The position numbers and the translations under genes were made by a program. Of a stretch of DNA of 64,000 nucleotides, positions 2,532 to 62,741 are shown in pieces. The DNA is taken from the sequence record OM135583.1. One strand, given 5' to 3'. Source of the stretch: Escherichia phage EP01. The number at the start of each line of letters is the position of its first letter. The stretch's first letter is position 1. Under the pieces are notes generated by a model. It did not search any database and had not been told where the DNA came from. It worked only from the letters and a program-made list of their open reading frames with translations.

Positions 2532-2798
2532 CTACGCAATCTTAACTCGACGGTTGATGATGTCACGGAAGTCAATACGATTTTCTTGGATTTTCAGCCA
2601 GTTACCAGATTTGTCTTTGGTATGGGTAGAATATTCACCGTTCCACCAGAAGTCAGTAGCATAAGCCATGGTTTCATATTTCTTAACTAGGGCATTCACT
2701 GCATTACCGTTAGGATTGGAACCATATTTTTCTACCAGGGCTTTGATGTCTTTATCAAGAGCGGACAGAGTAGTACGAATAAAGTTTAACTTGTTCAT
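2532..2798 (-). CDS. hypothetical protein, 88 aa, reverse-oriented in the 23-24 gap
   Basis: ORF on - strand; ATG at 2798 preceded by GAGGAG SD (2806-2811) with 7-nt spacing; the track's upstream start at 2813 overlaps the SD; Trp-rich motif FWWNGEY; no family recognised. Confidence 0.55.
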   Translation of the reverse strand: MNKLNFIRTTLSALDKDIKALVEKYGSNPNGNAVNALVKKYETMAYATDFWWNGEYSTHTKDKSGNWLKIQENRIDFRDIINRRVKIA

Positions 2799-2864
2799 TT
2801 TTAATCTCCTCATGTTTTTGATAGGTCTATAGTAACATGTGATAACCTTGCTGTAAACAACTTT

Positions 2865-2900: not shown

Positions 2901-4184
2901 ATGGCTAAAATCAACGAACTTCTGCGCGAATCAACCACAACGAATAGCAACTCAATCGGTCGCCCAAATCTCGTTGCTTTGACTCGCGCTACCACTAAAT
3001 TAATATATTCTGACATTGTAGCAACGCAAAGAACTAATCAACCTGTTGCTGCTTTTTATGGTATCAAATACCTTAACCCAGATAATGAATTTACATTTAA
3101 AACTGGTGCTACTTACGCTGGCGAAGCTGGATATGTAGACCGAGAACAAATCACAGAATTAACAGAAGAGTCTAAATTAACTCTCAATAAAGGCGATTTA
3201 TTCAAATATAATAATATCGTTTATAAAGTATTAGAAGATACACCATTTGCTACCATTGAAGAAAGCGATTTAGAATTAGCTCTTCAGATTGCAATTGTTC
3301 TTTTAAAGGTTCGCCTATTTTCTGACGCAGCGTCAACAAGCAAATTTGAAAGCTCTGATAGCGAAATTGCTGATGCTAGATTCCAGATTAATAAATGGCA
3401 AACCGCAGTTAAATCTCGTAAACTTAAAACTGGTATCACAGTTGAATTAGCACAAGATTTAGAAGCAAATGGATTCGATGCTCCTAATTTCTTGGAAGAT
3501 TTGCTTGCAACTGAAATGGCGGATGAAATCAATAAAGATATTCTACAGTCTTTGATTACAGTATCAAAACGCTATAAAGTTACAGGAATTACTGATACCG
3601 GATTCATTGATTTGAGTTATGCATCTGCACCTGAAGCTGGTCGTTCATTATACCGAATGGTATGTGAAATGGTTTCGCATATCCAAAAAGAATCAACTTA
3701 TACAGCAACGTTCTGCGTTGCTTCAGCTCGTGCCGCTGCGATTCTTGCTGCATCAGGTTGGTTAAAACATAAACCAGAAGATGATAAATATCTTTCACAA
3801 AATGCCTACGGGTTCTTAGCTAATGGTTTACCGCTTTATTGCGATACTAACAGCCCATTAGATTATGTAATCGTTGGCGTGGTAGAAAATATTGGCGAAA
3901 AAGAAATTGTTGGATCAATTTTCTATGCCCCGTATACAGAAGGTCTGGACTTAGATGACCCTGAACATGTAGGTGCATTTAAAGTTGTAGTTGATCCAGA
4001 AAGTTTGCAGCCATCTATTGGTTTATTAGTTAGATATGCTTTATCTGCAAATCCTTACACTGTAGCAAAAGATGAAAAAGAAGCAAGAATAATTGATGGT
4101 GGAGACATGGATAAAATGGCGGGTCGTTCAGATTTGTCTGTTTTATTAGGTGTTAAGCTACCAAAAATTATCGTTGATGAATAA
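2901..4184 (+). CDS. 24: head vertex protein gp24
   Basis: 427 aa, gp23 paralogue (shared C-terminal region), late promoter upstream, T4 gene order. Confidence 0.95.
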   Translation: MAKINELLRESTTTNSNSIGRPNLVALTRATTKLIYSDIVATQRTNQPVAAFYGIKYLNPDNEFTFKTGATYAGEAGYVDREQITELTEESKLTLNKGDLFKYNNIVYKVLEDTPFATIEESDLELALQIAIVLLKVRLFSDAASTSKFESSDSEIADARFQINKWQTAVKSRKLKTGITVELAQDLEANGFDAPNFLEDLLATEMADEINKDILQSLITVSKRYKVTGITDTGFIDLSYASAPEAGRSLYRMVCEMVSHIQKESTYTATFCVASARAAAILAASGWLKHKPEDDKYLSQNAYGFLANGLPLYCDTNSPLDYVIVGVVENIGEKEIVGSIFYAPYTEGLDLDDPEHVGAFKVVVDPESLQPSIGLLVRYALSANPYTVAKDEKEARIIDGGDMDKMAGRSDLSVLLGVKLPKIIVDE

Positions 4185-4190
4185 AACAAA

Positions 4191-4212
4191 GGGACCGAAA
4201 GGTCCCTTTTTA
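4191..4212. terminator. bidirectional terminator between gene 24 and rnlB
   Basis: GGGACC-GAAA-GGUCCC hairpin flanked by A-run and T-run; convergent genes. Confidence 0.75.
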
Positions 4213-4213
4213 T

Positions 4214-5218
4214 TTAACTTACCAATTCAATCCAAGCCGGACGAAGTACATCTTGTACCATTTTAACTAATTCCTTTTTAATCAAAGAAGGATTATCAGC
4301 TTGAGTTAGAGTAATACCTTCACGAGAAGTTTCTTCCAAAATATCTTGCACAGTTAGTCCCATCACCTTTCCAAAATCCTTCGGACCAATTTCGCCAATT
4401 TTAGAAATAACGTTATTTACTCGGTTCAGTGTAACGTAGCAAGCTAAAATTCCCAGCAATTTATTATCAGCTTCTGACAGCTCAACTTTAGCTTTAATAG
4501 GCTTATCAGACTTTTTCTTTTCACTAAATTTAGAGTTCTTGCATTTAATCGCTACGCGATTGCCATTAGGCATCCAAGAAGGATAACAAGGTTTCAATAC
4601 ATAACCTTCAGCGGTAAATACTTCGCCTTTTGCTTCAGCATTCCAAACGCATTTATTTGCATCAACTAATCCAGCATGGTCTACTGTAAAATTATAATCC
4701 TGGACGACAGAATCTAAATCATTTGGCAATTTAATAAGTTCTTCAAATTTACCACGACCCAAAAGTGGAGCCATTTTAAATTTGAATGTATTACAGAATG
4801 ATTCCATCATATAATCATCGACATAAGTCACATCACCACTTTCTGTAGTAACAATAATGTCAAATACATAAAAATCTTTATCACCATAATCGACATTCTT
4901 CTGAATGCCAGGTCCAGCGAATTCGCCGAAGACTTGATAAGATACAACTGCTGAAGTTTCCATAATATCTTGTACTGCTTTAATGGAATCAGCGTAATTC
5001 TTTAGAATAATTTCATACCCAAAGAAATCTTCAGCAGGAAGAATCGGTCCAGTACGTTTAGCACAAGTTGCTTTATCGCGTTCAATAATCAGTGAGAAAT
5101 TTGTACCATGAATCTTTTCACGAGCTACCCATTCGCCGCCAGTCAATCCTAAACTATAAAGTTTTTCAATGAATTTAGAATTATAATGATTTTCAAGACT
5201 GCTATACTTTTTAAACAT
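4214..5218 (-). CDS. rnlB: RNA ligase 2 (Rnl2)
   Basis: 334 aa; nucleotidyltransferase motif I KIHGTNFS; T4 position and size. Confidence 0.9.
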
Positions 5219-5796: not shown

Positions 5797-6648
5797 TTAT
5801 GGATAGGTATAGATGATACCAGTTTCTAAAGCAGTTTTATGAATGATGTATCCATTGCGCGATTCTTGAACATCAACTTCTGGATAGTCTTTCATCATCT
5901 TCTGAAGAGTGTAACGATGCAAGTAATATTTACTATCTGGGTCGTCAGTTTTCCAATCTTTACCTTCTTCGGTCATTTTTTGGATTTCATCCATAACCCA
6001 CCAACCGCACCAGATATAAGCTGAAGTACGATGTGGAAGAGGATGAACATAAGGTAATTCACCTTCTGGTTCTTGAGCAACTTTATCATTCACAGTCAGT
6101 GATACTTCATTCGAAGTAACTTCCTTTGCATCATAATCTGTCGCGGTTACTTGAGCCACACACTTAATTGTTTTAACTCCGCTTGTGGAAGGAGTGTAAT
6201 TAAATGTAGCGGAAGTTGCTTCACTAACAGGAGAATCATCTACATACCATTGATATGTAGCAGATGCGCCTGATGGTTGAGAAGCTAAGGCAGCAGTAAA
6301 TTGAACTGGGGTTCCAATTACTCCAGCAGCAGGACTAGCAGGAGTTACAGCTAAGGTAGTTGTCTGTGTCTTATTTTGAACTGTGATAGTTGTAGAAGCT
6401 TCTGCTGTTTCAGCATCAGAATCAGGAATAGTATTTGTTGCAACTACTTTAATAGTCTTTTGACCGGCAGGTCCTTTTAATACATAATCAAAAGTTGCTT
6501 CAGCTCCATCTTGTGGAACATTATCTACAGTCCAAGCATAGGTAATAGTTCCACCTCCAGTTTCACCACTGGGTGTAGCAGTAAACTGCTGAGTCTGATC
6601 TATAACTCCAGTAGGTGTTTTAGGAGTTATATCAACTGTAAAAGCCAT
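5797..6648 (-). CDS. hoc: head outer capsid protein Hoc, short 2-Ig-domain form
   Basis: 283 aa; N-terminal Ig-like domains and C-terminal capsid-binding region (PYVHPLPHRTSAYIWCGWWVMDEIQ...) recognised as Hoc; shorter than T4 Hoc (376 aa). Confidence 0.9.
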   Translation of the reverse strand: MAFTVDITPKTPTGVIDQTQQFTATPSGETGGGTITYAWTVDNVPQDGAEATFDYVLKGPAGQKTIKVVATNTIPDSDAETAEASTTITVQNKTQTTTLAVTPASPAAGVIGTPVQFTAALASQPSGASATYQWYVDDSPVSEATSATFNYTPSTSGVKTIKCVAQVTATDYDAKEVTSNEVSLTVNDKVAQEPEGELPYVHPLPHRTSAYIWCGWWVMDEIQKMTEEGKDWKTDDPDSKYYLHRYTLQKMMKDYPEVDVQESRNGYIIHKTALETGIIYTYP

Positions 6649-6657
6649 AAGTTATCC

Positions 6658-7338
6658 TTATTTTAATGTTACGAAAGAAGAGTTGCGTGTTTCACGAATT
6701 AAAACTGATCCGTCACGGTTAATGTAGTAAATTAAGCTAAATAAAGTTTGGTGTGCTGACGCGTGTTCAAAACTAGTTGGGTGAGATTTCCAATCCGGAG
6801 TTTCAGCAATCCATTGATAAATCCACCAAGGAACAGTACAGAATCCTGGATTTTTTCCAATCAACTGAAGATTCGGGCTAAAGTTTTCCGGAAGAGTAAA
6901 TACAGACGGCTTTTCAGATTCAATAATCTCAGCTACAGCCTGCTCAAATTTTTCTTCAACAAAAGGAGTATCTTCAATCAAAACATCGATATTTTCAGGA
7001 ATTTTATCCGTTTCTACCACTTCAATTTTAATGTCAGATTTAACCGGAGAATCAATTAGAAGTGCTGCTTCTGGATTGACCTCTTCATCGTCATATTTTA
7101 ATCCCTCTGCAGCATCAGCAGCATTAATTAAGTCTTTAATAGATAACCCATCAGTCTCTGGCATAGGTTCACTAGCGAGCTTCTGGAGGGCTTCTTCAAT
7201 ATCAACAACGATATTATCAAAAGATTTATTCTTTTTGACCTTTATACCAAACTGTTCAGCATATTCAGTTAATTTAGCTTTAGCTTCTTTATTATCATCA
7301 AGAGCCTTCAGCTCTGCAATATAATCTTTATCTATCAT
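6658..7338 (-). CDS. inh: acidic protein at the T4 inh position (inhibitor of prohead protease)
   Basis: 226 aa, position between hoc and segE/uvsW; SD GAGGA. Confidence 0.6.
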   Translation of the reverse strand: MIDKDYIAELKALDDNKEAKAKLTEYAEQFGIKVKKNKSFDNIVVDIEEALQKLASEPMPETDGLSIKDLINAADAAEGLKYDDEEVNPEAALLIDSPVKSDIKIEVVETDKIPENIDVLIEDTPFVEEKFEQAVAEIIESEKPSVFTLPENFSPNLQLIGKNPGFCTVPWWIYQWIAETPDWKSHPTSFEHASAHQTLFSLIYYINRDGSVLIRETRNSSFVTLK

Positions 7339-7351
7339 AATATTTCCTCAG

Positions 7352-7359
7352 TATAAATA
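7352..7359 (+). promoter_or_regulatory. late promoter TATAAATA upstream of segE-uvsW
   Basis: Exact motif about 30 nt before the segE ATG. Confidence 0.55.
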
Positions 7360-7387
7360 TAGATATATTTATTACTCGGAAAATAGT

Positions 7388-8005
7388 ATGTATCACTTTG
7401 TATATGAAACGACAAATCTAATAAATGGTAAAAAGTATATAGGAAAACACTCTACTGATGACTTGAATGATGGCTACCTTGGTTCCGGTAAGGCAATTCA
7501 GCAGGCTATAAAGAAATATGGTGAAAAGAATTTCTCTAGAACAATACTAAAAGAGTTTAAAACTTCCGAAGAAGCGTACATGTATGAAGAAGAAATTATA
7601 ACTCCTGAACTAATAAAAAGCAAAAATTATTATAATATGAAACCTGGTGGAATTGGTGGAATTGTTATGACTGCAGAGGTTATAGCAAAGATGAAAGAAT
7701 CTTCCGCTAAGAGATTTGAAAACTCACCGGGCACGGTATTAGGTACAACTTGTTACACCAATGGAACTAAAAATATTTTTATTAAACCCGGAGAACTTGT
7801 TCCAGAAGGATTTGTAAAAGGGATGGTTCATCTTAATAGAAAGTCCAGAAAAGGATGTAAAGTCAAACCGACTACCACAGGAACTTTTTGGGTCAATAAT
7901 GGAGCAATAAATAAATTAATACAACCAGACGGTATTATTCCCGATGGATTTATTAAAGGTCGTCTCATGAAAAGAGACTCTAAAGGCAAATTTAGTAAGG
8001 CATAA
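7388..8005 (+). CDS. segE: GIY-YIG homing endonuclease SegE
   Basis: 205 aa; GIY-YIG motif YHFVYETTNLINGKKYIGK; free-standing between inh and uvsW as in T4. Confidence 0.85.
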   Translation: MYHFVYETTNLINGKKYIGKHSTDDLNDGYLGSGKAIQQAIKKYGEKNFSRTILKEFKTSEEAYMYEEEIITPELIKSKNYYNMKPGGIGGIVMTAEVIAKMKESSAKRFENSPGTVLGTTCYTNGTKNIFIKPGELVPEGFVKGMVHLNRKSRKGCKVKPTTTGTFWVNNGAINKLIQPDGIIPDGFIKGRLMKRDSKGKFSKA

Positions 8006-18042: not shown

Positions 18043-18046
18043 CAAT

Positions 18047-18076
18047 GGGGACCTTTCGGTCCCCATATTTTTATTT
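18047..18076 (+). terminator. rho-independent terminator after gene 54
   Basis: GGGGACC-UUUC-GGUCCCC hairpin plus T-run. Confidence 0.75.
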
Positions 18077-18361
18077 ACGGAATGAAATAAAAGCAGCAAC
18101 TGAAGCAACTAAACTGTCTTCAATATAAACTTCAATTTTTACCGGAGCTTCTGATTCAAATTTACCTGTTACTACACCATGGAAAATGCTTTCAGTCTGT
18201 TCTGGCTTTGAAAAATTTTCAGAAGGAAAAATTCCGAACTTTTTATCTGTTCCAAAAATTTTGATAAATTCATCGTAAACTGCTTCATTAAAAGCGTTAT
18301 CAGCAGGAATAACGCCTTCAACTACAAGTTCTTGACCTAAAAAGCGTAAAGAAGATTTCAT
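18071..18361 (-). CDS. hypothetical protein (T4 alt.-3 position)
   Basis: 96-aa ORF with AGGA SD and early promoter upstream. Confidence 0.55.
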   Translation of the reverse strand: MKSSLRFLGQELVVEGVIPADNAFNEAVYDEFIKIFGTDKKFGIFPSENFSKPEQTESIFHGVVTGKFESEAPVKIEVYIEDSLVASVAAFISFRK

Positions 18362-18392: not shown

Positions 18393-18422
18393 ATTATAAC
18401 ACAACACGAGGGACTTGTAAAC
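18393..18422 (-). promoter_or_regulatory. T4-type early promoter (GTTTAC -35, TATAAT -10)
   Basis: - strand GTTTAC, 18-nt spacer, TATAAT, upstream of the alt.-3-position ORF. Confidence 0.6.
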
Positions 18423-20479
18423 TACATTTTGAACTTTTTAGACATTCCGTTGATGTTAATCAAAGAAGCCAAGATTTGAGAAACTTCGTTTTCCTCTTCT
18501 TTTGATTCTTCTACAAGGAATTGATTAAATCCAGCCATTGGACGAACTTCACCAGTTTCCATCAGGTGGTCGCCATCATATACCGATTCTTCTAATTGTT
18601 CAGAAGGAGGAACGATTGTGCCTTCGATTAGATACTTGTTATAAGCAGTTTCTTTCATCATGTACGTACTCACTTTATTAATCTTCAGCAAAATTCCACG
18701 TGGTAAAATAACTTCAGCTTCTGATGGAAATCCTGATAAATGACCCGGAACGATAACTTTGATTCGCTCAGCTCCTTTAATTACCATACCCACGCTAGTT
18801 TCAGCATCTTCATTCGCATAAGCAGAGTGACTGCCCATATGCATCAAATCTTCTGCGTCAACTGAACCTTCTCCTTCACCAGAAAATACTGCACCGGAAT
18901 CATCTAGAGCCATATAGTTTTTACCATACTCACCGAAGATATTTGGTTTAAGCGATGTTGATACGAAGTTCTTGAAATAGAACATTCTATTTTCAATATT
19001 ATGACGTAAAGTTTTAAAGGTAACTTCTTGTCCACGGTAAAGTGTAGTTCCTGGAGGAAGAACTGATCCTTTGGCAAAGGCAGAATCCATTGTCTCGATG
19101 TGTTTAATAGCTCGTTCCATATATTCTTCACGGGTAGAATCTGGTTTACCTAAAAGGAACGAGTTCATTTCAACATATGAATCTGCACAATAATCTTCAA
19201 TTACATCAGACTCAGCCTGAGTTAATCCTTTTGGGGGTACTTCAGTACTTGCATATTCATACGCTTGAGAAGCAGACTCATTAATCAATTTATAAATGCC
19301 ATTCATGACAAATTGAACAATAGCTACCTTTTCATCTGGCGTGGCTTTAGAACCTTTAACTAAATCATTGACGATTTTCTTAATAACATCAAAGCTATTA
19401 GAAATATTAATGTCAGCAAGATCGCTTAAAATTTTATCAGTTTTATAATCAAAAAATTCTTTATTCTTTAAATATTCTTGAGAACCTTGATATGTTATAT
19501 CGCTCTGTAACTTGATAGATGGATCACGTAAACGTGCATGAGCCAATGCAATATGATTTCGGAAGCTTTCTAGTTCATAATCATTAGATTTAAAACGAGA
19601 AGCACTTCTCATACCACCGATAGCTCCTTTGCTGAAGTTTGAACCAACCTGAATAACGCCAGAGTTCATTGGTCCTTCTGCTTTATATACTGGAACTTTA
19701 GATTCAAACTCTTGATATTTCTTAGCAGCGAAGCTATCACCCTGAAGTGAAGCATCGACAGTAGAATATTGAGCTTGTGCTGCTAATCGACGACTAATTT
19801 TAGTTTTCTGAATTACAGCTTGATCCGTGCGCTTATCATTTTCTAAAGCAATAGAAGCAGCAACAGCAACAGCTTTAGGAACAGCATTACCTGTTTTAAC
19901 GTCTACATAAACATCACCAACCTTTGATTCAACTTTTGTGAATAACTCAGTTGAAATAGGAGGTACACCTGGAATGTCTTCTAAATTGGCATTTTTACGG
20001 TAAACCATAATATATGCATATTTCTTATCATAGTCCCAGATTTCCTTTAAAAGAACATATCGACCTGCTCCTTTAGTACGCACTAAACGGTCGGCAATAA
20101 CTTGCATTTGACGAGCAGCGCCATTTGTTTTACTCTTTAATACGCGGAATAGGCATGCGTCAATTTTGTACTGTTTCATTGTTTGAAGAGCAGTATCAAA
20201 AACCGCATTAATGACACCAATTGGATTTCCACCCAAGTTTTTAAGTTTAACTAATGATAGTTTCTCGTTGACACCTATCATTACGATATGCATCATTTTA
20301 TCGCCTGGCTTAACGTTTTTATTTGTATCACCACCAGAGGTGTATGTACAAAATCTAAATCCAGGAAGCACGCTTTCTTCACCGGCTTGAATAGCAAAAA
20401 TTTGAGGTATTTTATGCTTAGGATTTAAGTTAACAACCGGCGCCGAAGCGCCGTCAAATAATTCTGTAATAAGTTCCAT
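18422..20479 (-). CDS. Alt-family ADP-ribosyltransferase paralogue
   Basis: 685 aa; N-terminal ~200 aa near-identical in pattern to the neighbouring alt; ART triad TLYRGQE / FVSTS / EAEVILPRG. Confidence 0.85.
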   Translation of the reverse strand: MELITELFDGASAPVVNLNPKHKIPQIFAIQAGEESVLPGFRFCTYTSGGDTNKNVKPGDKMMHIVMIGVNEKLSLVKLKNLGGNPIGVINAVFDTALQTMKQYKIDACLFRVLKSKTNGAARQMQVIADRLVRTKGAGRYVLLKEIWDYDKKYAYIMVYRKNANLEDIPGVPPISTELFTKVESKVGDVYVDVKTGNAVPKAVAVAASIALENDKRTDQAVIQKTKISRRLAAQAQYSTVDASLQGDSFAAKKYQEFESKVPVYKAEGPMNSGVIQVGSNFSKGAIGGMRSASRFKSNDYELESFRNHIALAHARLRDPSIKLQSDITYQGSQEYLKNKEFFDYKTDKILSDLADINISNSFDVIKKIVNDLVKGSKATPDEKVAIVQFVMNGIYKLINESASQAYEYASTEVPPKGLTQAESDVIEDYCADSYVEMNSFLLGKPDSTREEYMERAIKHIETMDSAFAKGSVLPPGTTLYRGQEVTFKTLRHNIENRMFYFKNFVSTSLKPNIFGEYGKNYMALDDSGAVFSGEGEGSVDAEDLMHMGSHSAYANEDAETSVGMVIKGAERIKVIVPGHLSGFPSEAEVILPRGILLKINKVSTYMMKETAYNKYLIEGTIVPPSEQLEESVYDGDHLMETGEVRPMAGFNQFLVEESKEEENEVSQILASLININGMSKKFKM

Positions 20480-20482
20480 GAT

Positions 20483-22579
20483 TTATCCTTGAACGAACTT
20501 GTAAGGCATGTTTGTAATATCTATGCAAGACGCAATAATTCCGAGAGATGATTCTGCTTTCTGTTTAACATTTGATGAAACAAATGATGCAAAGTCAACT
20601 CTGTCTTCTATTTCAATATCACCTGTCATTGCAACTACTTCACCGGTTTCCATTAGACGGTCACCGTCATAAATGACTGATTCGGTGAGTTCTTCCGTAG
20701 TCATAACTTCAGCTTGAATGAGTTTTGTGTTATTAGATGTTGTTCCGTCATTATTAGAAGCATCAGTTATTTTATTAACTTTGACCATCAATCCGCGTGG
20801 TAGAATTACTTCAGCTTCTGTTGCTATTCCGAGACTCCCTGGATATACAACATTAACTTTATGAGCTCCATCAATTGCCCATCCTATTTGAACTTTAACG
20901 TATTCAGGATTTTCTTTATACGCTCTTATTTCGTTCGGATTAATAGTTATTCCTTCTTCATTTTTATCAACTGTTAATTCATTACGAGCTTCTGGTTCTA
21001 AAAGACCGATACCAGCATGTGTAATTCCAAAACGTCCAAAAATGATAGGAGTTAAAGAAGTAGATACAAAATTTCTGAAATAGAACACTTTATTTTTAAC
21101 TAGTGCTTCGTATATAGGAGCAGTCATACTTTGAGCACGATAAACTGTAATGCCTTCTGGTATACGGTCACCATTTTCAAAAGCTGAATCTAAATTATTT
21201 ATCGCAGATTCAATTTCTTTTTCACTCATTACATCATATCGTTCTGGATTGTAGCGGCCTAAAAGAAGATTATTGATGTCAGTATATCCTGATCCACAAT
21301 ATTCTCTAATGCCGCGCTTTTGCGATGGAGTATATTTAGAACCATCACGTGCAATGGTAATATCAATCATTGGACCTGCACCAATTCCAGAAAAGCTGTA
21401 AATCATTCTTTTGAGGAATTTAGTTTTTGCTGCGTTCCAGGAATTTTTAGTTATTTCTTCCCAGACTTCATCTGGCTGTCCTTTACGGGTTTTATTATGT
21501 TTATCAAGCCAAGTATCTTTATATTCTTCAAAGAATTTATTAATAGCTGCTGCATACTTCTCTAAACATTTTATTGAAGTAGTTGGTTCATTTTTAATCG
21601 CATTAAGAATTACATCTTTAATTTTTTCAGAAACTTCATTAACCTCACTTTTTGAAAAGAATTTATAATCATAGTGAAGTTCATCTGCAGTTCCTTCGGC
21701 AATAATTTTTGCTGCTTTAGTTTTAGAAGCTAATGAATTAATTCCAAGTTTCATTTCTTCTGCTTCAGGAATTAAAGGAGCTGTAGCAGGTTTATTGAAA
21801 TTAGCTGCGGTAGATTCATACTTCTGAAATAATTCATTTTCAAATCTAGAAGATTCTAATGATTGACTTTGCGCAATTGCTCTACGGGAAATTTTAACTT
21901 TAACGATTACAGCTTGGTCAGAACGTTTATCATTTTCTTGCGCAATAGATGCTGCAATTGCCTCATTTTTAGTTACTTGGGCTCCAGTATCTTTATTGAT
22001 ATAAACATCGCCGACCTTCGATTCAACTTTAGTAAAGAGCTCGGTACTAATTTCCGGAACTCCTGGAATGTCTTCTAGTGATACATTTTTGCGATGTATA
22101 AGAATATATGCATACTTTTTATCGTAATCCCAGAGTTCCTTAAGAAGGACGTATCTGCCACCTGAACGACTACGGATAAGTCTATCAGCAATAACTTGAA
22201 TTTGTCGAGCTTGGCCAGCAGTTTTAGACTTAAGAATACGAAGCATGCAGGCATCAATTTTATACTGACGCATCGTTTGCATCGCAACAGTAAAAACTGA
22301 ATTGATGTAATTAATTGGGCTTGGACCGAGACCTTTCAATTTAGCAATTGAACCTTTAGCAGTTAATGTAAAAGGAACAATGTGCATCATTTTATCGCCC
22401 ATCTTTAGATCACGGTTAGTATCACCTCCAGATGTATAGGTACATAAACGAAAGCCTGGTTGTTCAATTGCGTCATCAACATGAACTGAAAAAATTTGCG
22501 GTATTTTCTTCTTTGGATTTAAGTTTGTAATCGGAAGAGTAGTATCTTCGTCAAATAATTCTGTAATGAGTTCCATCAT
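20483..22579 (-). CDS. alt: ADP-ribosyltransferase Alt (packaged, injected)
   Basis: 698 aa; ART triad TVYRAQS / FVSTS / EAEVILPRG; late promoter and SD upstream; position next to gene 30. Confidence 0.88.
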   Translation of the reverse strand: MMELITELFDEDTTLPITNLNPKKKIPQIFSVHVDDAIEQPGFRLCTYTSGGDTNRDLKMGDKMMHIVPFTLTAKGSIAKLKGLGPSPINYINSVFTVAMQTMRQYKIDACMLRILKSKTAGQARQIQVIADRLIRSRSGGRYVLLKELWDYDKKYAYILIHRKNVSLEDIPGVPEISTELFTKVESKVGDVYINKDTGAQVTKNEAIAASIAQENDKRSDQAVIVKVKISRRAIAQSQSLESSRFENELFQKYESTAANFNKPATAPLIPEAEEMKLGINSLASKTKAAKIIAEGTADELHYDYKFFSKSEVNEVSEKIKDVILNAIKNEPTTSIKCLEKYAAAINKFFEEYKDTWLDKHNKTRKGQPDEVWEEITKNSWNAAKTKFLKRMIYSFSGIGAGPMIDITIARDGSKYTPSQKRGIREYCGSGYTDINNLLLGRYNPERYDVMSEKEIESAINNLDSAFENGDRIPEGITVYRAQSMTAPIYEALVKNKVFYFRNFVSTSLTPIIFGRFGITHAGIGLLEPEARNELTVDKNEEGITINPNEIRAYKENPEYVKVQIGWAIDGAHKVNVVYPGSLGIATEAEVILPRGLMVKVNKITDASNNDGTTSNNTKLIQAEVMTTEELTESVIYDGDRLMETGEVVAMTGDIEIEDRVDFASFVSSNVKQKAESSLGIIASCIDITNMPYKFVQG

Positions 22580-22599: not shown

Positions 22600-22607
22600 T
22601 ATTTATA
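22600..22607 (-). promoter_or_regulatory. late promoter TATAAATA (- strand) upstream of alt
   Basis: Reverse complement is an exact TATAAATA about 20 nt before the alt ATG. Confidence 0.55.
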
Positions 22608-22628
22608 AAATTAAAGGCCCGAAGGCCT

Positions 22629-22817
22629 TTAATAATCTAATGGTAAGAGAGTACGATATATTTCAAACTTTGGACCTTTTTCATAGGCATCAAATGTTTC
22701 TGTGAATTTATTATAAGCATATGCATCTACAAATTCGAGAATGACTTGTGATACAGAAGTAGAAACATCTCCACCTTCTTTTTGAGCAATGACAATTGTT
22801 TCTAAGTAAGCTTTCAT
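22629..22817 (-). CDS. hypothetical protein, 62 aa
   Basis: Small ORF overlapping the gene 30 stop by 4 nt. Confidence 0.5.
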   Translation of the reverse strand: MKAYLETIVIAQKEGGDVSTSVSQVILEFVDAYAYNKFTETFDAYEKGPKFEIYRTLLPLDY

Positions 22818-30946: not shown

Positions 30947-32146
<1,200 letters not shown>

Positions 32147-32150
<4 letters not shown>

Positions 32151-35196: not shown

Positions 35197-36375
35197 TTAA
35201 AAGTATTTTTTAAAACTCATCATAACTTTATCATCAACATCATTATCAATCTGTGCAACAAGGTAAGATGACAGTTCTACTTCTTGTGGCGCGGATTGAA
35301 CATTATCAGAATTAAGATATTCACGAATCCAAGGATATGGATGTTTAACCGGAGCATCGGTAATTGGGCATGGAAGACCACACTGTTTCATACGAGATAC
35401 AGTTAAGTAATCAATAAAGCTCCACATGCTATTTGTATTTAATCCAGGAACATCACCATCTTTAAATAAATGAACTGCCCAATCTTTTTCTTGGCGGTTA
35501 ACTTCCATGAAAATATCAACTGCTTCTTGTTCACACTCTTGAGCAATTTTAACCCATTCATCACCATCAGTACCGGATTGAAGTTGACGAATAATATATT
35601 GAGTGCCTTTAAGGTGAAGCTGCTCATCACGCGCAATGAACTTCATAATCTTGGCATTACCTTCCATGATTTCCATGTTCTTATGGAAGTTAAAGGTACA
35701 TGCAAAAGATACATAAAAACGAATAGCTTCTAAGGCATTAATAACGTGCAAACAGAGGTAAAGAGATTTCATTAGTGCTCGTTTAGCTTCGGCTTCTTGT
35801 TTAATAGCTCGATTTAAACGAAAAACAGCATCAGGAGATTCTTTAGCTAGTTCTGTAAATTCTTTAGCATTTTCCCATTCACGGGTTTTAGTCAGAACAT
35901 CATCATAATAGCGACCGATAGATTCAGCACGTTTCATGATAGCTTCATCTAGTACAATCTCATCAAATACCTTCGATGGATCAGTATAAAGATTTCGCAT
36001 GATATGGGTATATGAACGGCTATGAATAGTTTCACTAAAAGTCCATGTAGCAACCCATGTATCAAGACTTGGGTCTGAAATTAATGACATAAGTACAGCA
36101 GATGGCGCACGACCCTGAATGCTATCTAGAAGTGATTGATACTTCAGATTATTAGTAAAAATATCTTGCTGATATTGAGGAAGCTTGTTAAATTGTGCAG
36201 CATCCATCATTAAGTTTACTTCTTCAGGACGCCAGAAAAATGACAACTGCTTTTCGGTTAAATCTTCAAAAACTTTATGACGTTGAATATCATAACGCGC
36301 AATACCAAGACCTGAACCGAAGAACATAGGTTCTTTTAAAACATCAACTGGATTTGTATTAAAAACTGTGCTCAT
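35197..36375 (-). CDS. nrdB: ribonucleotide reductase small subunit, intron-less
   Basis: 392-aa uninterrupted ORF with the iron/radical site region. Confidence 0.95.
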   Translation of the reverse strand: MSTVFNTNPVDVLKEPMFFGSGLGIARYDIQRHKVFEDLTEKQLSFFWRPEEVNLMMDAAQFNKLPQYQQDIFTNNLKYQSLLDSIQGRAPSAVLMSLISDPSLDTWVATWTFSETIHSRSYTHIMRNLYTDPSKVFDEIVLDEAIMKRAESIGRYYDDVLTKTREWENAKEFTELAKESPDAVFRLNRAIKQEAEAKRALMKSLYLCLHVINALEAIRFYVSFACTFNFHKNMEIMEGNAKIMKFIARDEQLHLKGTQYIIRQLQSGTDGDEWVKIAQECEQEAVDIFMEVNRQEKDWAVHLFKDGDVPGLNTNSMWSFIDYLTVSRMKQCGLPCPITDAPVKHPYPWIREYLNSDNVQSAPQEVELSSYLVAQIDNDVDDKVMMSFKKYF

Positions 36376-36426
36376 AAATTTTCCGCTTAGTTAATAGATA
36401 GTGACTCGTCCGTGAGTCAAATTATA

Positions 36427-38691
36427 TCATAATTTACAGGATGAACAATCTTCAGCTTTTGGAGTTTCTATTTCATAATCATCAGTACCAGAACCATCAC
36501 GGGTATTATGATAATAGAAGTTTTTAATGCCATAATACCATCCGTATAGCATGTCATCAATCATTACAGACATTGGAACCTTTCCTTTTGGAAAAATCTG
36601 CGGGTCATAATATGTATTCGCTGAAGCTGATTGACATACCCATTTCAGCATAATAGCTACCTGCGTAAGATAAGGTTTATTACCTTTCTTAGCTAATTTC
36701 CACGTATAATCATAGAGGTCTATGTTATGCTCAATATTGGGCACGACTTGATTAAAGGAACCCTCTTTTGATTCTTTAACAGAGACTGGTCCACGTGGAG
36801 GCTCGATACCGTTTGTACTGTTAGAAACTTGGGAAGATGACTCACATGGCATAAGTGCTGATAATGTGCTATTACGGATGCCAAAGAGCTTAAGGTCTTC
36901 CCGCAGCGACGACCAGTCACAAACGTATTTTGGAGCTGCGATTTGGTCAATCTTTTTATTGTACCAGTCGATAGGTAATTCGCCTCGAGACCAACGAGTG
37001 TCTGAATAATATTCGCAAGGTCCTTTTTCTTTGGCGAGCTTAATGGATGCTTTAATGAGTCCATACTGTAGTCTCTCAAATAGTTCATGTGTTAAATCGT
37101 TAGCATCTTCATAAGAAGCAAAGTTACTTGCCAGCCAAGCTGCATAGTTAGTAACACCTACGCCAAGGTTTCGACGCTTTTTAGCTTTTTCTGCTTCAGG
37201 AACTGGATATCCTTGGTAATCCAAAAGATTATCAAGAGCACGAACTTGAACTTCTGCTAATTCATTAATTTTATCTTGGTCTTGCCAATCGAAATTATCT
37301 AACACAAATGCAGATAACGTGCACAATCCAATTTCAGCATCAGGACTATTCACATCATTTGTTGGAATAGCAATTTCACAGCACAAGTTACTCTGACGAA
37401 TAGGTGCCTTTTCACGAATAAATGGAGTATAGTTATTCGTATTATCAATGAACTGTACATAAATCCTTGCTGTTCCTGATCGTTCAGTCATGAGCAATTC
37501 AAACAGTTCACGTGCTTTAATACGCTTTTTGCGAATATTAGGGTCTTTTTCTGCTGCTTCGTATAATTCGCGGAAACGGTCTTGGTCTTTAAAATAAGAA
37601 TAATAAAGCTCGCCGCCCATTTCATGCGGACTGAACAAAGTAATGTAGTCGTTCTTTCCAAAACGTTCCATCATCAAATCATTCAGCTGGACGCCATAAT
37701 CCATATGACGGATACGGTTTTCTTCTACGCCTTTGTTATTTTTCAAAACGAGAAGATTTTCAACTTCCAAATGCCAAATAGGATAATAAGCAGTAGCAGC
37801 GCCGCCACGAATTCCACCCTGTGAACATGATTTAACAGCAGTCTGAAAATGTTTCCAAAAAGGAATAACGCCAGTATGACGTACTTCACCTGTGCCAATC
37901 TTAGAACCTTCAGCACGAATCATACCAACGTTAATACCAATTCCAGCACGTTTGGAGATATATTCAACAATTGAAGCTGAAGCCTTATTGATAGACTTCA
38001 GCGAATCACCTGCTTCAATAACAACGCATGAACTAAATTGCCGAGTTGGAGTACGACAACCAGCCATAATAGGAGTTGGCAGTGAAATCTGTCGAGTGGA
38101 TACTGCTTCATAAAAACGAATAACGTGTTTTAATCTATCAACAGGTTCGTCTTGATGCAATGCCATTCCAATAGTCATAAATGCAAACTGTGGAGTTTCA
38201 TAAATTTGACCAGTGGTTTTATCTTTAACGAGATATTTTTCTTTTAATTGCATCGCCCCGGAATAAGTAAATTCCATATCCCGCTCGTGCTTAATTTTTG
38301 ATTCTAAAAATGTAATTTCTTCTGCAGAATATTTTGACAACAATTCAGGATCGTATTTACCTTCATTTACACAGTAAGAAATATGGTCAATAAATGAACG
38401 GGGCTCATACTGTCCGTACACATGTTTACGAAGAGCAAACATTAAACAGCGTGCAGCTACGTATTGGTAATCAGGCTCTTCAACTGAAATAGAATTCGCA
38501 GCAGCCTTAATTACAATAGTTTGAATGTCATCAGTGGTCATTCCATCACGGAGATATGATTTAATATTTTCATATAATTCATAAGGATCTACAGATGTTC
38601 CTTCAGCTGCCCAAGATAAAACTTTAATAATTTTTTGTGAATCAAAGCTCTGAGAAACACCACTACTTTTGATAACATTAATTAATTGCAT
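36427..38691 (-). CDS. nrdA: ribonucleotide reductase large subunit
   Basis: 754 aa, T4 size, class Ia RNR features. Confidence 0.95.
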   Translation of the reverse strand: MQLINVIKSSGVSQSFDSQKIIKVLSWAAEGTSVDPYELYENIKSYLRDGMTTDDIQTIVIKAAANSISVEEPDYQYVAARCLMFALRKHVYGQYEPRSFIDHISYCVNEGKYDPELLSKYSAEEITFLESKIKHERDMEFTYSGAMQLKEKYLVKDKTTGQIYETPQFAFMTIGMALHQDEPVDRLKHVIRFYEAVSTRQISLPTPIMAGCRTPTRQFSSCVVIEAGDSLKSINKASASIVEYISKRAGIGINVGMIRAEGSKIGTGEVRHTGVIPFWKHFQTAVKSCSQGGIRGGAATAYYPIWHLEVENLLVLKNNKGVEENRIRHMDYGVQLNDLMMERFGKNDYITLFSPHEMGGELYYSYFKDQDRFRELYEAAEKDPNIRKKRIKARELFELLMTERSGTARIYVQFIDNTNNYTPFIREKAPIRQSNLCCEIAIPTNDVNSPDAEIGLCTLSAFVLDNFDWQDQDKINELAEVQVRALDNLLDYQGYPVPEAEKAKKRRNLGVGVTNYAAWLASNFASYEDANDLTHELFERLQYGLIKASIKLAKEKGPCEYYSDTRWSRGELPIDWYNKKIDQIAAPKYVCDWSSLREDLKLFGIRNSTLSALMPCESSSQVSNSTNGIEPPRGPVSVKESKEGSFNQVVPNIEHNIDLYDYTWKLAKKGNKPYLTQVAIMLKWVCQSASANTYYDPQIFPKGKVPMSVMIDDMLYGWYYGIKNFYYHNTRDGSGTDDYEIETPKAEDCSSCKL

Positions 38692-40154: not shown

Positions 40155-40505
40155 TCAATACGGTTTAGCATCAAATTTTCTTTCGATTTCAGGAGTGAAA
40201 TATAATTCTTTACCACGTTTGGAAAAGCGACCAATAATATGATAATTATTCTCATCAAACGTGATATTGCCGATATCCATAGCTTTCAACCAAATATCGA
40301 TATTTCTGTCAAGCTTTATATCAAAATTCCAATACGGAGAACTATTACCGAAAATACTGCAAGCGGATTCAGTGCAATAACTGCTGCTATAAATCTTGTC
40401 TTTGGGAACTACTAATTGATAGACGCCTTTAATAAACTGAGGACCCTGCCATTTTGGTTGTTTCGCGTCTTTTTCTAATAGAATAGGGTAATAATTAAAG
40501 TTCAT
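40155..40505 (-). CDS. hypothetical protein in a frd-td insertion (116 aa from ATG; 120 aa from upstream GTG)
   Basis: ORF with no recognisable motif lying in 416 bp that separate frd and td; weak SD; Cys pair YCTESAC. Confidence 0.5.
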   Translation of the reverse strand: MNFNYYPILLEKDAKQPKWQGPQFIKGVYQLVVPKDKIYSSSYCTESACSIFGNSSPYWNFDIKLDRNIDIWLKAMDIGNITFDENNYHIIGRFSKRGKELYFTPEIERKFDAKPY

Positions 40506-43354: not shown

Positions 43355-43425
43355 TTTTATTTCCTTTTTAATTTAATTAACAGTTGGTGCTATGACGATG
43401 TATGACCTCATAGCTGGTCAGTGAG
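43355..43425 (-). promoter_or_regulatory. gene 32 translational operator (pseudoknot region plus AU-rich leader)
   Basis: Leader UUAAUUAAAUUAAAAAGGAAAUAAAAAUG and upstream GAGGUCAUACAUCGUCAUAGCACC match the recalled T4 autoregulatory site. Confidence 0.55.
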
Positions 43426-43437
43426 ATAATTATAATC

Positions 43438-43445
43438 TATTTATA
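43438..43445 (-). promoter_or_regulatory. late promoter TATAAATA (- strand) upstream of gene 32
   Basis: Reverse complement is an exact TATAAATA. Confidence 0.5.
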
Positions 43446-43453
43446 ATAAGCAA

Positions 43454-51446: not shown

Positions 51447-54400
51447 ATGGCTACTTTAAAACAAATACAATTTAAAAGAAGCAAAACCGCAGGTGCACGT
51501 CCTGCTGCTTCAGTATTAGCCGAAGGTGAATTGGCTATAAACTTAAAAGATAGAACAATTTTTACTAAAGATGATTCAGGAAATATCATTGATTTAGGCT
51601 TTGCTAAAGGCGGGCAAGTTGATGGAAATGTGACTATCAATGGACTTTTGAAATTAAACGGCGATTATGTACAAACTGGTGGAATGACCGTAAATGGACC
51701 TATTGGTTCTACTGAAGGCATAACTGCAAAAGTTTTCAGATCTACACAAGGTTCATTTTATACAAGAGCATCAAACGATGCCTCAAATGCCCATTTATGG
51801 TTTGAAAATGCCGATGGTACTGAACGAGGCGTTATATATGCTCGTCCTCAAACTACAACCGATGGTGAAATACGTCTTAGAGTTAGACAAGGCACAGGTA
51901 GCACTGTAAATAGCGAATTCTATTTCCGTTCTATTAATGGAGGTGAATTCCAGGCGGCTCGAGTAATTGCTACTACTTCGATGCATACTCCATCTGTAGT
52001 TGTTAATACAGTTAACCATGATTCTAAAACGTTTGGTCAATATGATAGCCAATCGTTAGTTAACTACGTATACCCAGGCACCGGTGAAACAAATGGTATA
52101 AACTATCTTCGTAAAGTTCGAGCTAAATCAGGCGGAACTATTTACCATGAAATCGCTTCAGCTCAAACTGGTAAGAATGATGAAATTTCTTGGTGGACCG
52201 GAAATACACTTACTACTAAATTAATGGGTCTTCGTAATGATGGCGCAATGGTATTACGTCGTTCACTTGCTATTGGCACAATTACCACTGATGAAAATAC
52301 TAACAACTATGGTTCTCCTACTCCAATGGGAGAAAGATATATTGCTTTGGGTGATGCTGCCACTGGTTTAAAATACATTAAGCAGGGCGTTTATGATTTA
52401 GTAGGTAATTGGAATTCTGTCGCATCTATTACTCCAGATAGTTTCCGTAGTACTCGTAGAGGTATATTTGGACGTTCAGAAGACCAAGGCACCACATGGA
52501 TTATGCCTGGAAACAACGCCGCGTTTTTATCGGTTCAAACACAAGCTGATGGAAACACTGCTGGAGACGGCCAGACACATATTGGCTATAACTCAGGCGG
52601 TAAAATGAACCACTATTTCCGTGGTAAAGGCAAAACTAATATTAATACTCAGGAAGGTGTAGACGTTAACCCGGGTATTTTAAAATTAACAACTGGTGCT
52701 AACAGTATTAGCTTTAACGCTGCAACAGGTAATATTGATTCTACATTAGCCTTTCGTCTTAATAAAGGCATAATTATTGATGGGCCTGATAATCAGGGAT
52801 TCCAGTTTAACGCACCGACGGCTGCAGATGGTACTAGAAGTATATACTGGAATAGTGGCACACGCCCAGGTCAAAACAAAAGCCCTGTTACGGTTAAGGC
52901 ATGGGGAAGTGCGTACAGCACAGGAGATAAATCTCGTGAAACTGTGTTTGAAGTTGGTGATGGGCAAGGATATTACTTTTATGCGCAGCGTGTAGCTCCC
53001 GATTCAGGATCTACTGTCGGACGAATTCAATTTAGAATTGCTGGAGCATTATTAACCGGTGGTATTACATCATCCGGCTCGATTGTTACAGAATCAAGTT
53101 TAGTTGCGAATAATGGATTATCTGTAAATGGTCAAGCCAAATTTGGCGGAACAGCAAACGCACTGAGAATTTGGAATGCTGAATATGGTGCCATTTTCCG
53201 TCGTTCGGAAAATAACTTTTATATTATTCCAACCAATCAAAATGAAGGCGAAAGTGGAGACATTCACAGCTCTTTGAGACCTGTGAGAATAGGATTAAAT
53301 GATGGTATGGTTGGATTAGGAAGAGATTCTTTTATAGTAGATCAAAATAATGCTTTAACTACGATAAACAGTAACTCTCGCATTAATGCCAACTTTAGAA
53401 TGCAATTAGGTCAGGCTGCATACATTGATGCAGAATGTACTGATGCTGTTCGCCCGGCTGGCGCGGGTTCATTTGCTTCGCAAAATAATGAAAACGTTCG
53501 TGCTCCATTCTATATGAACATTGATCGTACAGATACAAGTACTTACGTTCCCATTTTAAAACAACGATATGTTCAAGGAAATAGTTGTTATTCTTTAGGT
53601 ACTTTAATAAATGGCGGTGACTTCAGAGTTCAATACCATGAAGGTGGAGATAATAATTCAACAGGTCCTTTAATTAAAGACTTTGGATGGGAATTCCGTC
53701 GTACTGGTGACTTCCGCGTACCTGGTAAAATTATTGCCGGTGCTGCTACTCTTGACACTGATGGTAATATTACGGGTGGTTCAGGAAACTTTGCTAACTT
53801 AAACAGTACAATTGAATCACTTAAAACTGATATTGTTTCAAGTTATCCTATTGGAGCTCCAATTCCATGGCCAACGGATACACCTCCTGAAGGTTATGCA
53901 ATAATGGAAGGTCAGACTTTTGATAAGTCTGCATATCCAAAGTTAGCTGCGGTGTATCCTTCCGGCGCTCTGCCTGATATGCGTGGTCAAACTATCAAGG
54001 GTAAACCAAGTGGTCGCGCAGTGTTGAGCGCTGAGGCAGATGGTGTTAAGGCTCATAGCCATAGTGCATCTGCTTCAAGTACTGACTTAGGCACTAAAAC
54101 CACATCAAGCTTTGACTATGGTACGAAGGGAACTAATACTACTGGTGGCCACACACACTCTGGTAGTGGTTCTACTAGCGCAAATGGTGAGCACAGCCAC
54201 TACATGGAGGCATGGAGTGGTACTGGTAAAGGTGGTAATCTGATGTCATCATATGCCGTAGCATATAGGGCTGGTGGGACTAACACTAATGCAGCAGGGA
54301 ACCACAGCCACACTTTCTCTTTTGGGACTAGCGGTGCTGGCGACCATTCCCACTCTGTAGGTATTGGTGCTCACAGCCACACGGTAGCGATTGGTTCGCA

Positions 54401-61896: not shown

Positions 61897-62103
61897 TCAA
61901 TAATCCGCTAAAAGATCGACGATTGCATCACGAAGACACTTATTCGCAATACGTTTAAGAGCAATTTCAGTTTCTGGAGCATTTTGAATAATCATTGAAT
62001 TCAATTCAGCCTCAGCAAACTGAAGTTCTTTAACTAATTCAGCTTTATATTTTCCTTGCCCTTTCTTAGCTTTTGCTCGTTTTAATTCAGCTGTAGTAAA
62101 CAT
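61897..62103 (-). CDS. hypothetical protein, 68 aa (denB.1 position)
   Basis: ATG 62103 with GGAG SD; the track's longer form would include the promoter. Confidence 0.5.
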   Translation of the reverse strand: MFTTAELKRAKAKKGQGKYKAELVKELQFAEAELNSMIIQNAPETEIALKRIANKCLRDAIVDLLADY

Positions 62104-62137
62104 TTTATTCTCCAAATCCGTATCAGTTGATAGTTGT

Positions 62138-62167
62138 ATAGTACCACAGTCCTTGTGGTATGTAAAC
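62138..62167 (-). promoter_or_regulatory. T4-type early promoter
   Basis: GTTTAC, 18-nt spacer, TACTAT, downstream CAACTATCAACTG motif. Confidence 0.55.
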
Positions 62168-62183
62168 TGTTTTGTGAAATTTT

Positions 62184-62741
62184 TTAAATGGAAAGATACC
62201 ATCCGTTGTAGTTGCTTTTTCTTACAACCTTGCGAAGGTCTTCTCTATCACCAATGAACTTCGGAGTGTACTGGATGACACCTGGATGAATTTCTTTAGT
62301 GTTGAATATAATTATACAGTCAGCGACCTGATGATTCAGAATGGGCCCTAGATTTATTCCAGAACCGTATGGATATTCTCCACTGCATCCGGTTGTTACC
62401 GAAATCCAACGTGAGTCAGTTTGATGTGTTTTGACTTCTACACGAAGTCCACAGTATCTTGGGTGTGCCAATACATCCCATGCGTATGTATACGGGTCAT
62501 TAACATCCTCTTGACCTTTATTAACATACCCGCTCAGCCAATCTGCTACAAAAAACTCTGCATACACAGCGATACGGCATCTTTCAATAACTTCTGCTTT
62601 ATCCTGATTAGGATTTTGTTTTAAAGAGTATCTTGCTGTATCAGCAATTTTGACCTTCATTTCACTAGTCAAATCATTGTTCGATAGGGTAAATGCCGGA
62701 ATCTGAAATAGTCTCTGTAAACCTGGATTCGTTTTCTGCAT
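62184..62741 (-). CDS. denB: endonuclease IV
   Basis: 185 aa (T4 size), position next to rIIB. Confidence 0.85.
   Translation of the reverse strand: MQKTNPGLQRLFQIPAFTLSNNDLTSEMKVKIADTARYSLKQNPNQDKAEVIERCRIAVYAEFFVADWLSGYVNKGQEDVNDPYTYAWDVLAHPRYCGLRVEVKTHQTDSRWISVTTGCSGEYPYGSGINLGPILNHQVADCIIIFNTKEIHPGVIQYTPKFIGDREDLRKVVRKSNYNGWYLSI

Follow-up and report, generated by a model that had tools for sequence, protein, structure and literature searches.

We analysed a stretch of 64,000 nucleotides (the window) of Escherichia phage EP01 (sequence record OM135583.1) and found that two adjacent genes in it, alt and alt.-2 (product Alt2), encode ancient tandem paralogues of the Alt mono-ADP-ribosyltransferase, each with the same four-part architecture. 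The most likely explanation is that both proteins are head-packaged, injected arginine-specific ADP-ribosyltransferases (ARTs) with different targets, and that phage T4 lost most of the second gene by deletion. We consider this account, taken jointly, to be probable; its packaging, injection and target components are what we infer from the features described below. As a genome feature the pair is ordinary, being the majority genotype of its genus and already annotated.

The paralogy of the two proteins is far beyond chance, with 41% identity over the full length (BLASTP, E 1e-162). Identity amounts to 68% over the N-terminal residues 1-237, 21% over the central ~180 amino acids (aa), 36-40% over the ART domain (40% in its first half), 20% with indels over the segment between the STS and ExE motifs, and 40% at the C-terminus. 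These values agree with what had been noticed from the letters without database searches (the sequence-only reading), namely a conserved N-terminal region of about 200 aa and clear differences in the central and STS-to-ExE segments. The pairwise alignments proposed there, of both proteins against T4 Alt and against the T4 alt.-1 and alt.-2 products, were run and confirmed the tandem paralogy. Both proteins are matched end to end by phrog_802 of PHROG, 'Alt-like RNA polymerase ADP-ribosyltransferase' (E 3.1e-272 for Alt and 8.6e-255 for Alt2), and neither has a family match in NCBIfam. The middle module is helical, about 180 aa long, and the C-terminal tail is acidic in both. Profile comparison with hhalign detected no homology between the Alt-type and Alt2-type central modules (probability 0.4%), the profiles being shallow enough that a very distant kinship is possible; at least five or six central-module types occur among database homologues. 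The N-terminal module was modelled with a predicted local distance difference test score (pLDDT) of 83.6, and its model found no informative relative among solved structures.

Catalytic competence is suggested by several features of the ART domain. The Pfam family PF03496 (ADPrib_exo_Tox) matches Alt with 129.2 bits and Alt2 with 71.6 bits, against a gathering cut-off of 23.4. The catalytic residues are R480, S505-T-S507 and E587-A-E589 in Alt, and R482, S507-T508-S509 and E587-A-E589 in Alt2; the arginine, both serines and both glutamates are invariant in an alignment of 19 diverse homologues with identities down to 42%, so that the triad seen in both proteins by the sequence-only reading survived careful alignment without loss. 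With the family profile, the arginine and ExE motif of the Alt proteins fall on the catalytic arginine and Q/ExE of C3-like and BECa toxins; for the STS column, an insertion in the Alt proteins kept HMMER from producing a clean alignment to PDB chains. A phmmer search of Alt2 against PDB sequences gave no match, and only the family profile reached ART toxins. By sequence-level criteria, both proteins can be assigned to the R-S-E mono-ADP-ribosyltransferase clade, and the ExE motif predicts arginine specificity for both.

Structural modelling points in the same direction. The AlphaFold2 model of Alt2 has a mean pLDDT of 73, with most of the ART region between 70 and 90, and the top 50 PDB matches in a Foldseek search with it are all ART toxins, including Vis, C3bot, CDTa, VIP2 and Certhrax (E 2e-8 to 2e-5). 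The model thus predicts that the ART beta-sandwich fold is present in Alt2. The Alt proteins share this predicted fold, the catalytic arginine, STS and (Q/E)xE with the C3-like, VIP2, iota-CDTa and Vis toxins of PF03496, but differ from all of these in having ~415 extra N-terminal residues, a C-terminal propeptide linked to the assembly of phage heads, and ~75 residues inserted between the STS and ExE motifs. The ADP-ribosylating turn-turn (ARTT) segment before ExE reads GIATEAE in Alt, GFPSEAE in Alt2 and APSNEME in T4 Alt.

Both proteins carry candidate processing sites of a head protein. In T4 Alt, cleavage by gp21, the protease of the prohead, has been mapped experimentally to ITE-6 and LTE-619 (PMC5694885), and gp21-type motifs stand in the same alignment columns at ITE-6 and LTE-632 of Alt and at ITE-6 and LEE-631 of Alt2. 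The LxE motif lies ~55-65 residues from the C-terminus in both, and the Alt2 tail beyond it is of low confidence and disordered in the model. Trimming by gp21 at these sites is predicted to give mature masses of 70.2 kDa for Alt and 69.1 kDa for Alt2.

T4 retains a trace of the second gene. Its space between alt, which encodes 682 aa, and alt.-3 holds just alt.-1 (61 aa) and alt.-2 (67 aa), as the sequence-only reading had stated of T4, and these are fragments of a second copy. Their products are 89-90% identical to Alt2 residues 1-56 and 62-117, compared with ~68% for Alt, and the two PHROG families built from them, phrog_23015 and phrog_15247, score 138 and 131 bits with Alt2 versus 78 and 70 bits with Alt. 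At the DNA level the remnant corresponds to nucleotides (nt) 1-351 of the Alt2 gene with 95% identity and lacks one A from an A-run; this 1-nt deletion accounts for the split into alt.-1 and alt.-2. The remnant is then fused directly to the last 41 nt of the Alt2 gene, and the junction lies within a 9-bp imperfect direct repeat. T4 has therefore lost ~1.69 kb of a full-length second paralogue, and alt.-1 and alt.-2 are the stump left by a microhomology-mediated deletion and a frameshift. The T4 GenBank note, which describes them as 'a duplication of the first part of alt', understates this origin from a full-length paralogue. The two-gene state is ancestral and common, and its lack in T4 is derived.

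In counts that were not de-replicated, and therefore include RefSeq/GenBank duplicates and many T4 laboratory stocks, the whole 5.1-kb locus was found at ≥80% coverage in 394 of 544 records. The Alt2 segment missing from T4 is present in 401 phage records (≥80% coverage, 93-98.5% nucleotide identity), and a tblastn search at ≥90% aa identity likewise returned 401 records, in which the frame is intact and protein identity is 90-99%. The T4-type deletion junction occurs in 91 records, many of them T4 stocks. The suggestion of the sequence-only reading that an intact second paralogue might be a notable difference did not hold up, given 401 records with the gene and 91 with the deletion: relatives carry the same two intact paralogues, which that reading had said would make the pair ordinary, but T4 itself does not. 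The gene is annotated as alt.-2 in RB14 (YP_002854530) and as 'ADP-ribosyltransferase Alt2' in the BASEL phages Bas36 and Bas37. These are the same gene as the one in the window, encoding 685 aa between alt and alt.-3; EP01 Alt2 is 97.4% identical in aa sequence to RB14 alt.-2, and alleles of the RB14/BASEL gene differ by only 1-7% aa.

Beyond this genus, Dhakavirus IME341 has the order ligase, alt.1, alt, alt, alt.-3, 54, with two full-length alt genes. Some Aeromonas phages carry 2-3 copies; Mosigvirus, Klebsiella T4-like and Acinetobacter T4-like phages carry one. Duplications of alt had already been reported by Nolan et al. 2006, including a full-length one in phage 44RR (PMC1524935). The tandem pair is therefore already known at the annotation level and is the majority state of the genus. 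In the record of Shigella phage sb1 (PQ666539), Alt2 (3001-5058) is split into two coding sequences, as is gp48 (6403-7497); these splits look like assembly frameshift errors rather than real pseudogenes.

Alt itself falls into two deep allele classes, one of 697 aa (the window, PP01, RB14 and Ac3) and one of 682-684 aa (T4, sb1 and Bas36). The central module of the 697-aa type was found in 319 phage records and that of the T4 type in 175. EP01 Alt is the positional orthologue of T4 Alt (UniProt P12726), with 99.6% identity over residues 1-238, but identity drops to 32% for the central module, to 63-71% for the ART domain and to 40% for the segment from STS to ExE. Alt2 is 42-43% identical to T4 Alt overall and 68% in the N-terminal module, and between their central modules no similarity can be detected (10-11% identity). 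What T4 Alt and both window proteins have in common is the locus position, a late promoter box ahead of alt, the N-terminal MELITE propeptide, the C-terminal LxE site for gp21 and the R/STS/ExE residues. Allele class and the presence of Alt2 are not strictly linked, as sb1 and Bas36 combine a T4-type Alt with Alt2 and UoN_LDJ77_1 combines a 697-type Alt with the T4-type deletion.

Comparison with Dhakavirus places the duplication in time. Alt resembles Dhakavirus copy A (65% identity in the central module, 95% in the ART domain) and Alt2 resembles copy B (44% and 59%). The N-terminal modules group by genome instead, with 68% identity between Alt and Alt2, 66% between Dhakavirus A and B, and 42-46% across the genera. 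The orthologous relations of the effector modules imply that the duplication is older than the separation of the two genera. Measured against neighbouring core proteins, which are 57-70% identical between the window and Dhakavirus, the N-terminal module stands out as genus-specific and the 697-type ART domain as conserved to an unusual degree. We considered a recent horizontal transfer of the Alt ART domain from Dhakavirus and rejected it, as 95% aa identity is accompanied by only 77% nucleotide identity, which indicates strong constraint rather than recent transfer. Recent gene conversion between alt and alt.-2 was rejected as well: there are no long identical tracts, and DNA identity in the stretches common to both genes is 70-77%, with 94% over the first 31 nt. 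The likeness of the N-terminal modules within a genome thus reflects old homogenisation or co-adaptation and not a recent event. Among the window, PP01, RB14 and Ac3, the pairwise ratio of nonsynonymous to synonymous divergence (dN/dS) of Alt2 is 0.04-0.06 overall and ≤0.17 in every module, with synonymous divergence (dS) up to 0.35. A ratio of about 0.05 argues that Alt2 is functional and under strong purifying selection, not decaying.

Expression signals suggest that the two genes are made together. A T4-type late promoter box, TATAAATA, precedes alt and is the sole late box within the 18-23 kb region; Alt2 has none of its own. The alt stop codon TAA (20483-20485) and the Alt2 ATG (20477-20479) are 3 nt apart, and the ribosome-binding site of the second gene overlaps the end of the first. 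With no separate promoter for Alt2, alt and alt.-2 look like one bicistronic late unit with inferred co-transcription. A GC-rich hairpin between alt.1 and alt probably terminates transcription from upstream, in which case alt and alt.-2 would depend on the late promoter. A terminator is annotated at the same place upstream of alt in the phage Ac3 record, and its position there is conserved across T4-like genomes (PMC1524935).

These features can be assembled into a working model. T4 Alt, an NAD:arginine mono-ADP-ribosyltransferase, is present in ~40 copies in the capsid and is ejected into the host, and its targets and roles are RNA polymerase alpha, MazF and evasion of Mokosh. In EP01, Alt and Alt2 would both be made late from one promoter, Alt2 from its own ribosome-binding site, and would be built into the core of the prohead by way of the genus-adapted N-terminal module that they share, their propeptides or both. 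There, gp21 would trim each to ~69-70 kDa; both would then be injected along with the DNA and, right at the onset of infection, would ADP-ribosylate arginines of host proteins, each hitting a different set of targets. Different targets, which the sequence-only reading had suggested, are plausible and fit the anatomy of the proteins, because the middle modules are unrelated, the ART domains are 36-40% identical, and the STS-ExE insertion and the ARTT turn differ. That RNA polymerase alpha and further proteins of the host are ADP-ribosylated is known just for T4 Alt (PMC10468400). Published data support the view that such differences matter: growth in the face of Mokosh type I is rescued by the Alt of T4 but not by that of Bas37 (preprint 10.1101/2025.11.20.689424), so Alt variants are not interchangeable. 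The targets of T4 Alt cannot simply be transferred to either window protein, neither of which is the T4 allele.

Transposon data for Bas37 suggest that Alt2 matters somewhat. The table for this phage, whose Alt and Alt2 we equated with the window alleles on the strength of equal gene lengths (2097 and 2058 nt) and of the annotation, not by alignment, classes Alt2 as 'Intermediate' (116 of 164 TA sites, saturation 0.71) and Alt as 'Non-essential' (164 of 179, saturation 0.92), and the accompanying text does not discuss Alt2 (preprint 10.1101/2025.11.20.689424). Several points weigh against the model. The argument for different targets draws solely on sequence divergence, Alt2 is dispensable to the extent that it was lost in T4 and 90 other records, and we found no publication in the searchable literature on Alt2 function or its presence in virions. 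The 'Intermediate' class of Alt2 in Bas37 could reflect toxic truncated products and not loss of function.

We also weighed other explanations of Alt2. It is unlikely to be a redundant second dose of Alt, packaged and injected against the same host targets including RNA polymerase alpha. The common architecture, catalytic motifs and ExE motif predicting arginine specificity would suit such a role, T4 thrives without Alt2, and T4 Alt is itself non-essential (PMC9026906). However, the central modules are without detectable homology, and the ART domains, at 36-40% identity, differ in the residues of the ARTT turn and show indels in the STS-to-ExE segment; the lineages have stayed distinct across genera (Alt with copy A, Alt2 with copy B) under strong selection on both, where a redundant copy would be unlikely to persist; and the two genes differ in the Bas37 transposon data. 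Somewhat more doubtful is the idea that Alt2 is an active ART but not virion cargo, made late and acting in the producing cell, for example on phage or host proteins in the late phase or against a late-acting defence. T4 ModA and ModB, which are not packaged, show that phage ARTs need no injection (PMC10468400), and what favours packaging of Alt2 consists entirely of features of its sequence. Against this reading stand a 237-aa N-terminal module, the MELITELFD start and both gp21 motifs, all shared with Alt, and the probable co-transcription of Alt2 from the late promoter of that head protein. ModA and ModB, moreover, are short early proteins lacking the N-terminal and propeptide modules of Alt, which counts against the comparison.

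That Alt2 might be a decaying relic without current function is highly improbable and effectively excluded by the selection analysis. Its loss through one shared deletion junction in 91 records and its split into two coding sequences in the sb1 record could be taken that way, but dN/dS is ~0.05 at dS up to 0.25-0.35 between intact copies, the frame is intact at 90-99% protein identity in 401 records, the catalytic residues are invariant, and insertions in Alt2 are under-represented in Bas37; gp48 is likewise split in the sb1 record, whose frameshifts thus look like errors of assembly.

Building on the preferred explanation of two injected ARTs with different targets, we tentatively suggest, as a possibility somewhat short of an even chance, that the T-even alt locus is an effector-cassette system, in which a genus-specific delivery module and gp21-cleaved propeptides load interchangeable warheads and Alt2 serves as a separate injected effector directed at a host target of its own, possibly in anti-defence. 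The warhead here consists of the middle and ART modules, of which there are at least three deep types in Tequatrovirus, namely T4-type Alt, 697-type Alt and Alt2, with further types among database homologues. If this is true, Alt2 was missed for 50 years because the model phage T4 had deleted the gene. Nearly all knowledge of injected phage ARTs comes from T4, in which Alt2 is missing and Alt belongs to the minority class. It is thus reasonable to regard Alt2 and the 697-type Alt as candidate effectors in host takeover or anti-defence, with targets of their own.

Table 1. Features of the alt locus in the EP01 window (window coordinates).
Feature	Position	Strand	Remarks
alt	20483..22576	-	Alt ADP-ribosyltransferase, 697 aa from second ATG; 697-type allele, not T4 type
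alt open reading frame as called	20483..22579	-	698 aa, begins MMELITELFD
Alt N-terminal module	21863-22576	-	
Alt central module	21341-21862	-	
Alt ART module	20744-21340	-	
Alt R480	21137-21139	-	ART residue
Alt STS	21056-21064	-	ART residues
Alt ExE	20810-20818	-	ART residues
Alt C-terminal propeptide	20486-20680	-	predicted
alt.-2 (Alt2)	18422..20479	-	second full-length Alt paralogue, 685 aa
Alt2 N-terminal module	19769-20479	-	
Alt2 central module	19235-19768	-	
Alt2 ART module	18653-19234	-	
Alt2 R482	19034-19036	-	ART residue
Alt2 STS	18953-18961	-	ART residues
Alt2 ExE	18713-18721	-	ART residues
Alt2 C-terminal propeptide	18425-18586	-	predicted
Alt2 stretch deleted in T4	18442..20131	-	~1.69 kb; edges carry a 9-bp imperfect direct repeat, (C/T)TAAA(A/G)AGT
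Late promoter box TATAAATA	22600..22607	-	T4 type, ~20 nt upstream of alt start
Hairpin aaaggcc-ttcg-ggccttt, then T run	22613..22630	-	GC-rich, between alt.1 and alt; probable terminator
Alt2 ribosome-binding site AAGGA	20486..20490	-	within last codons of alt; ribosome-binding site annotated there in Ac3
alt.-3 promoter	18393-18421	-	strong sigma70-like, 11/12 matches, extended -10 TG
Bidirectional terminator hairpin	18045..18066		between gene 54 (+) and alt.-3 (-); annotated in Ac3
alt.-3	18071..18361	-	DUF5498, 96 aa; downstream neighbour, outside the ART pair, part of conserved locus
alt.1	22629..22817	-	Pfam Phage_blade, 62 aa; upstream neighbour

The window comes from a Tequatrovirus, that is, a T4-like phage, with the standard locus. 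Its DNA is 97-98% identical to many Tequatrovirus isolates without a full match to any of them, and the gene order, gene 30 (DNA ligase gp30), alt.1, alt, alt.-2, alt.-3 and gene 54, with gp48 also on the alt.-3 side, has flanks exactly as in T4. On the plus strand, the alt region contains only short open reading frames of ≤85 aa. The two long frames of 685 and 698 aa lie where the sequence-only reading had placed them. Its statement that both begin with MELITELFD is right for Alt2, but the 698-aa frame has an additional methionine in front, so that it applies to Alt only from the second ATG. As alt is annotated with 697 aa in the PP01 and RB14 records, and the distance from a GAGG ribosome-binding site is 5 nt for the second ATG as opposed to 2 nt for the first, the true start of alt is probably at 22576, which gives MELITELFD as in Alt2.

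On the far side of the pair, alt.-3 has its own promoter-like sequence, and the hairpin between it and gene 54 is predicted to end the leftward alt, alt.-2 and alt.-3 transcripts. T4 mutants with a C-terminal read-through extension of alt.-3 escape the CmdTAC defence (PMC11618068). In Bas37, transposon insertions in the alt.-3 homologue bas37_0031 were depleted in one condition (log2 fold change -2.7, adjusted p 0.02).

Elsewhere in the window, we noted several further differences from T4. The hoc gene (5797-6648, minus strand) encodes 283 aa versus 376 aa in T4, with a clean 282-nt gap (T4 110475-110757), as would fit a head decoration protein with one Ig-like domain less. The window is without segD, in place of which there is a 93-aa open reading frame (2532-2813, minus strand; region 2491-2851), and also without the nrdB intron and I-TevIII, nrdB.1 and mobE, the td intron and I-TevI, and segG; the corresponding junctions lie at ~35700, ~36375-36431, ~39560 and ~43417-43453. 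A scan of the whole 64-kb window against Rfam gave no family at or above its gathering score, consistent with the absence of the T4 td and nrdB group I introns. Three minus-strand open reading frames have no colinear match in T4, at 31848-32150 (100 aa, between pseT and pseT.1), 40155-40505 (116 aa, between td and frd) and 61897-62202 (101 aa, near denB). Within the distal tail-fibre gene 37, a short patch at 53000-53120 is without a T4 counterpart in blastn and probably represents a hypervariable segment for receptor binding.

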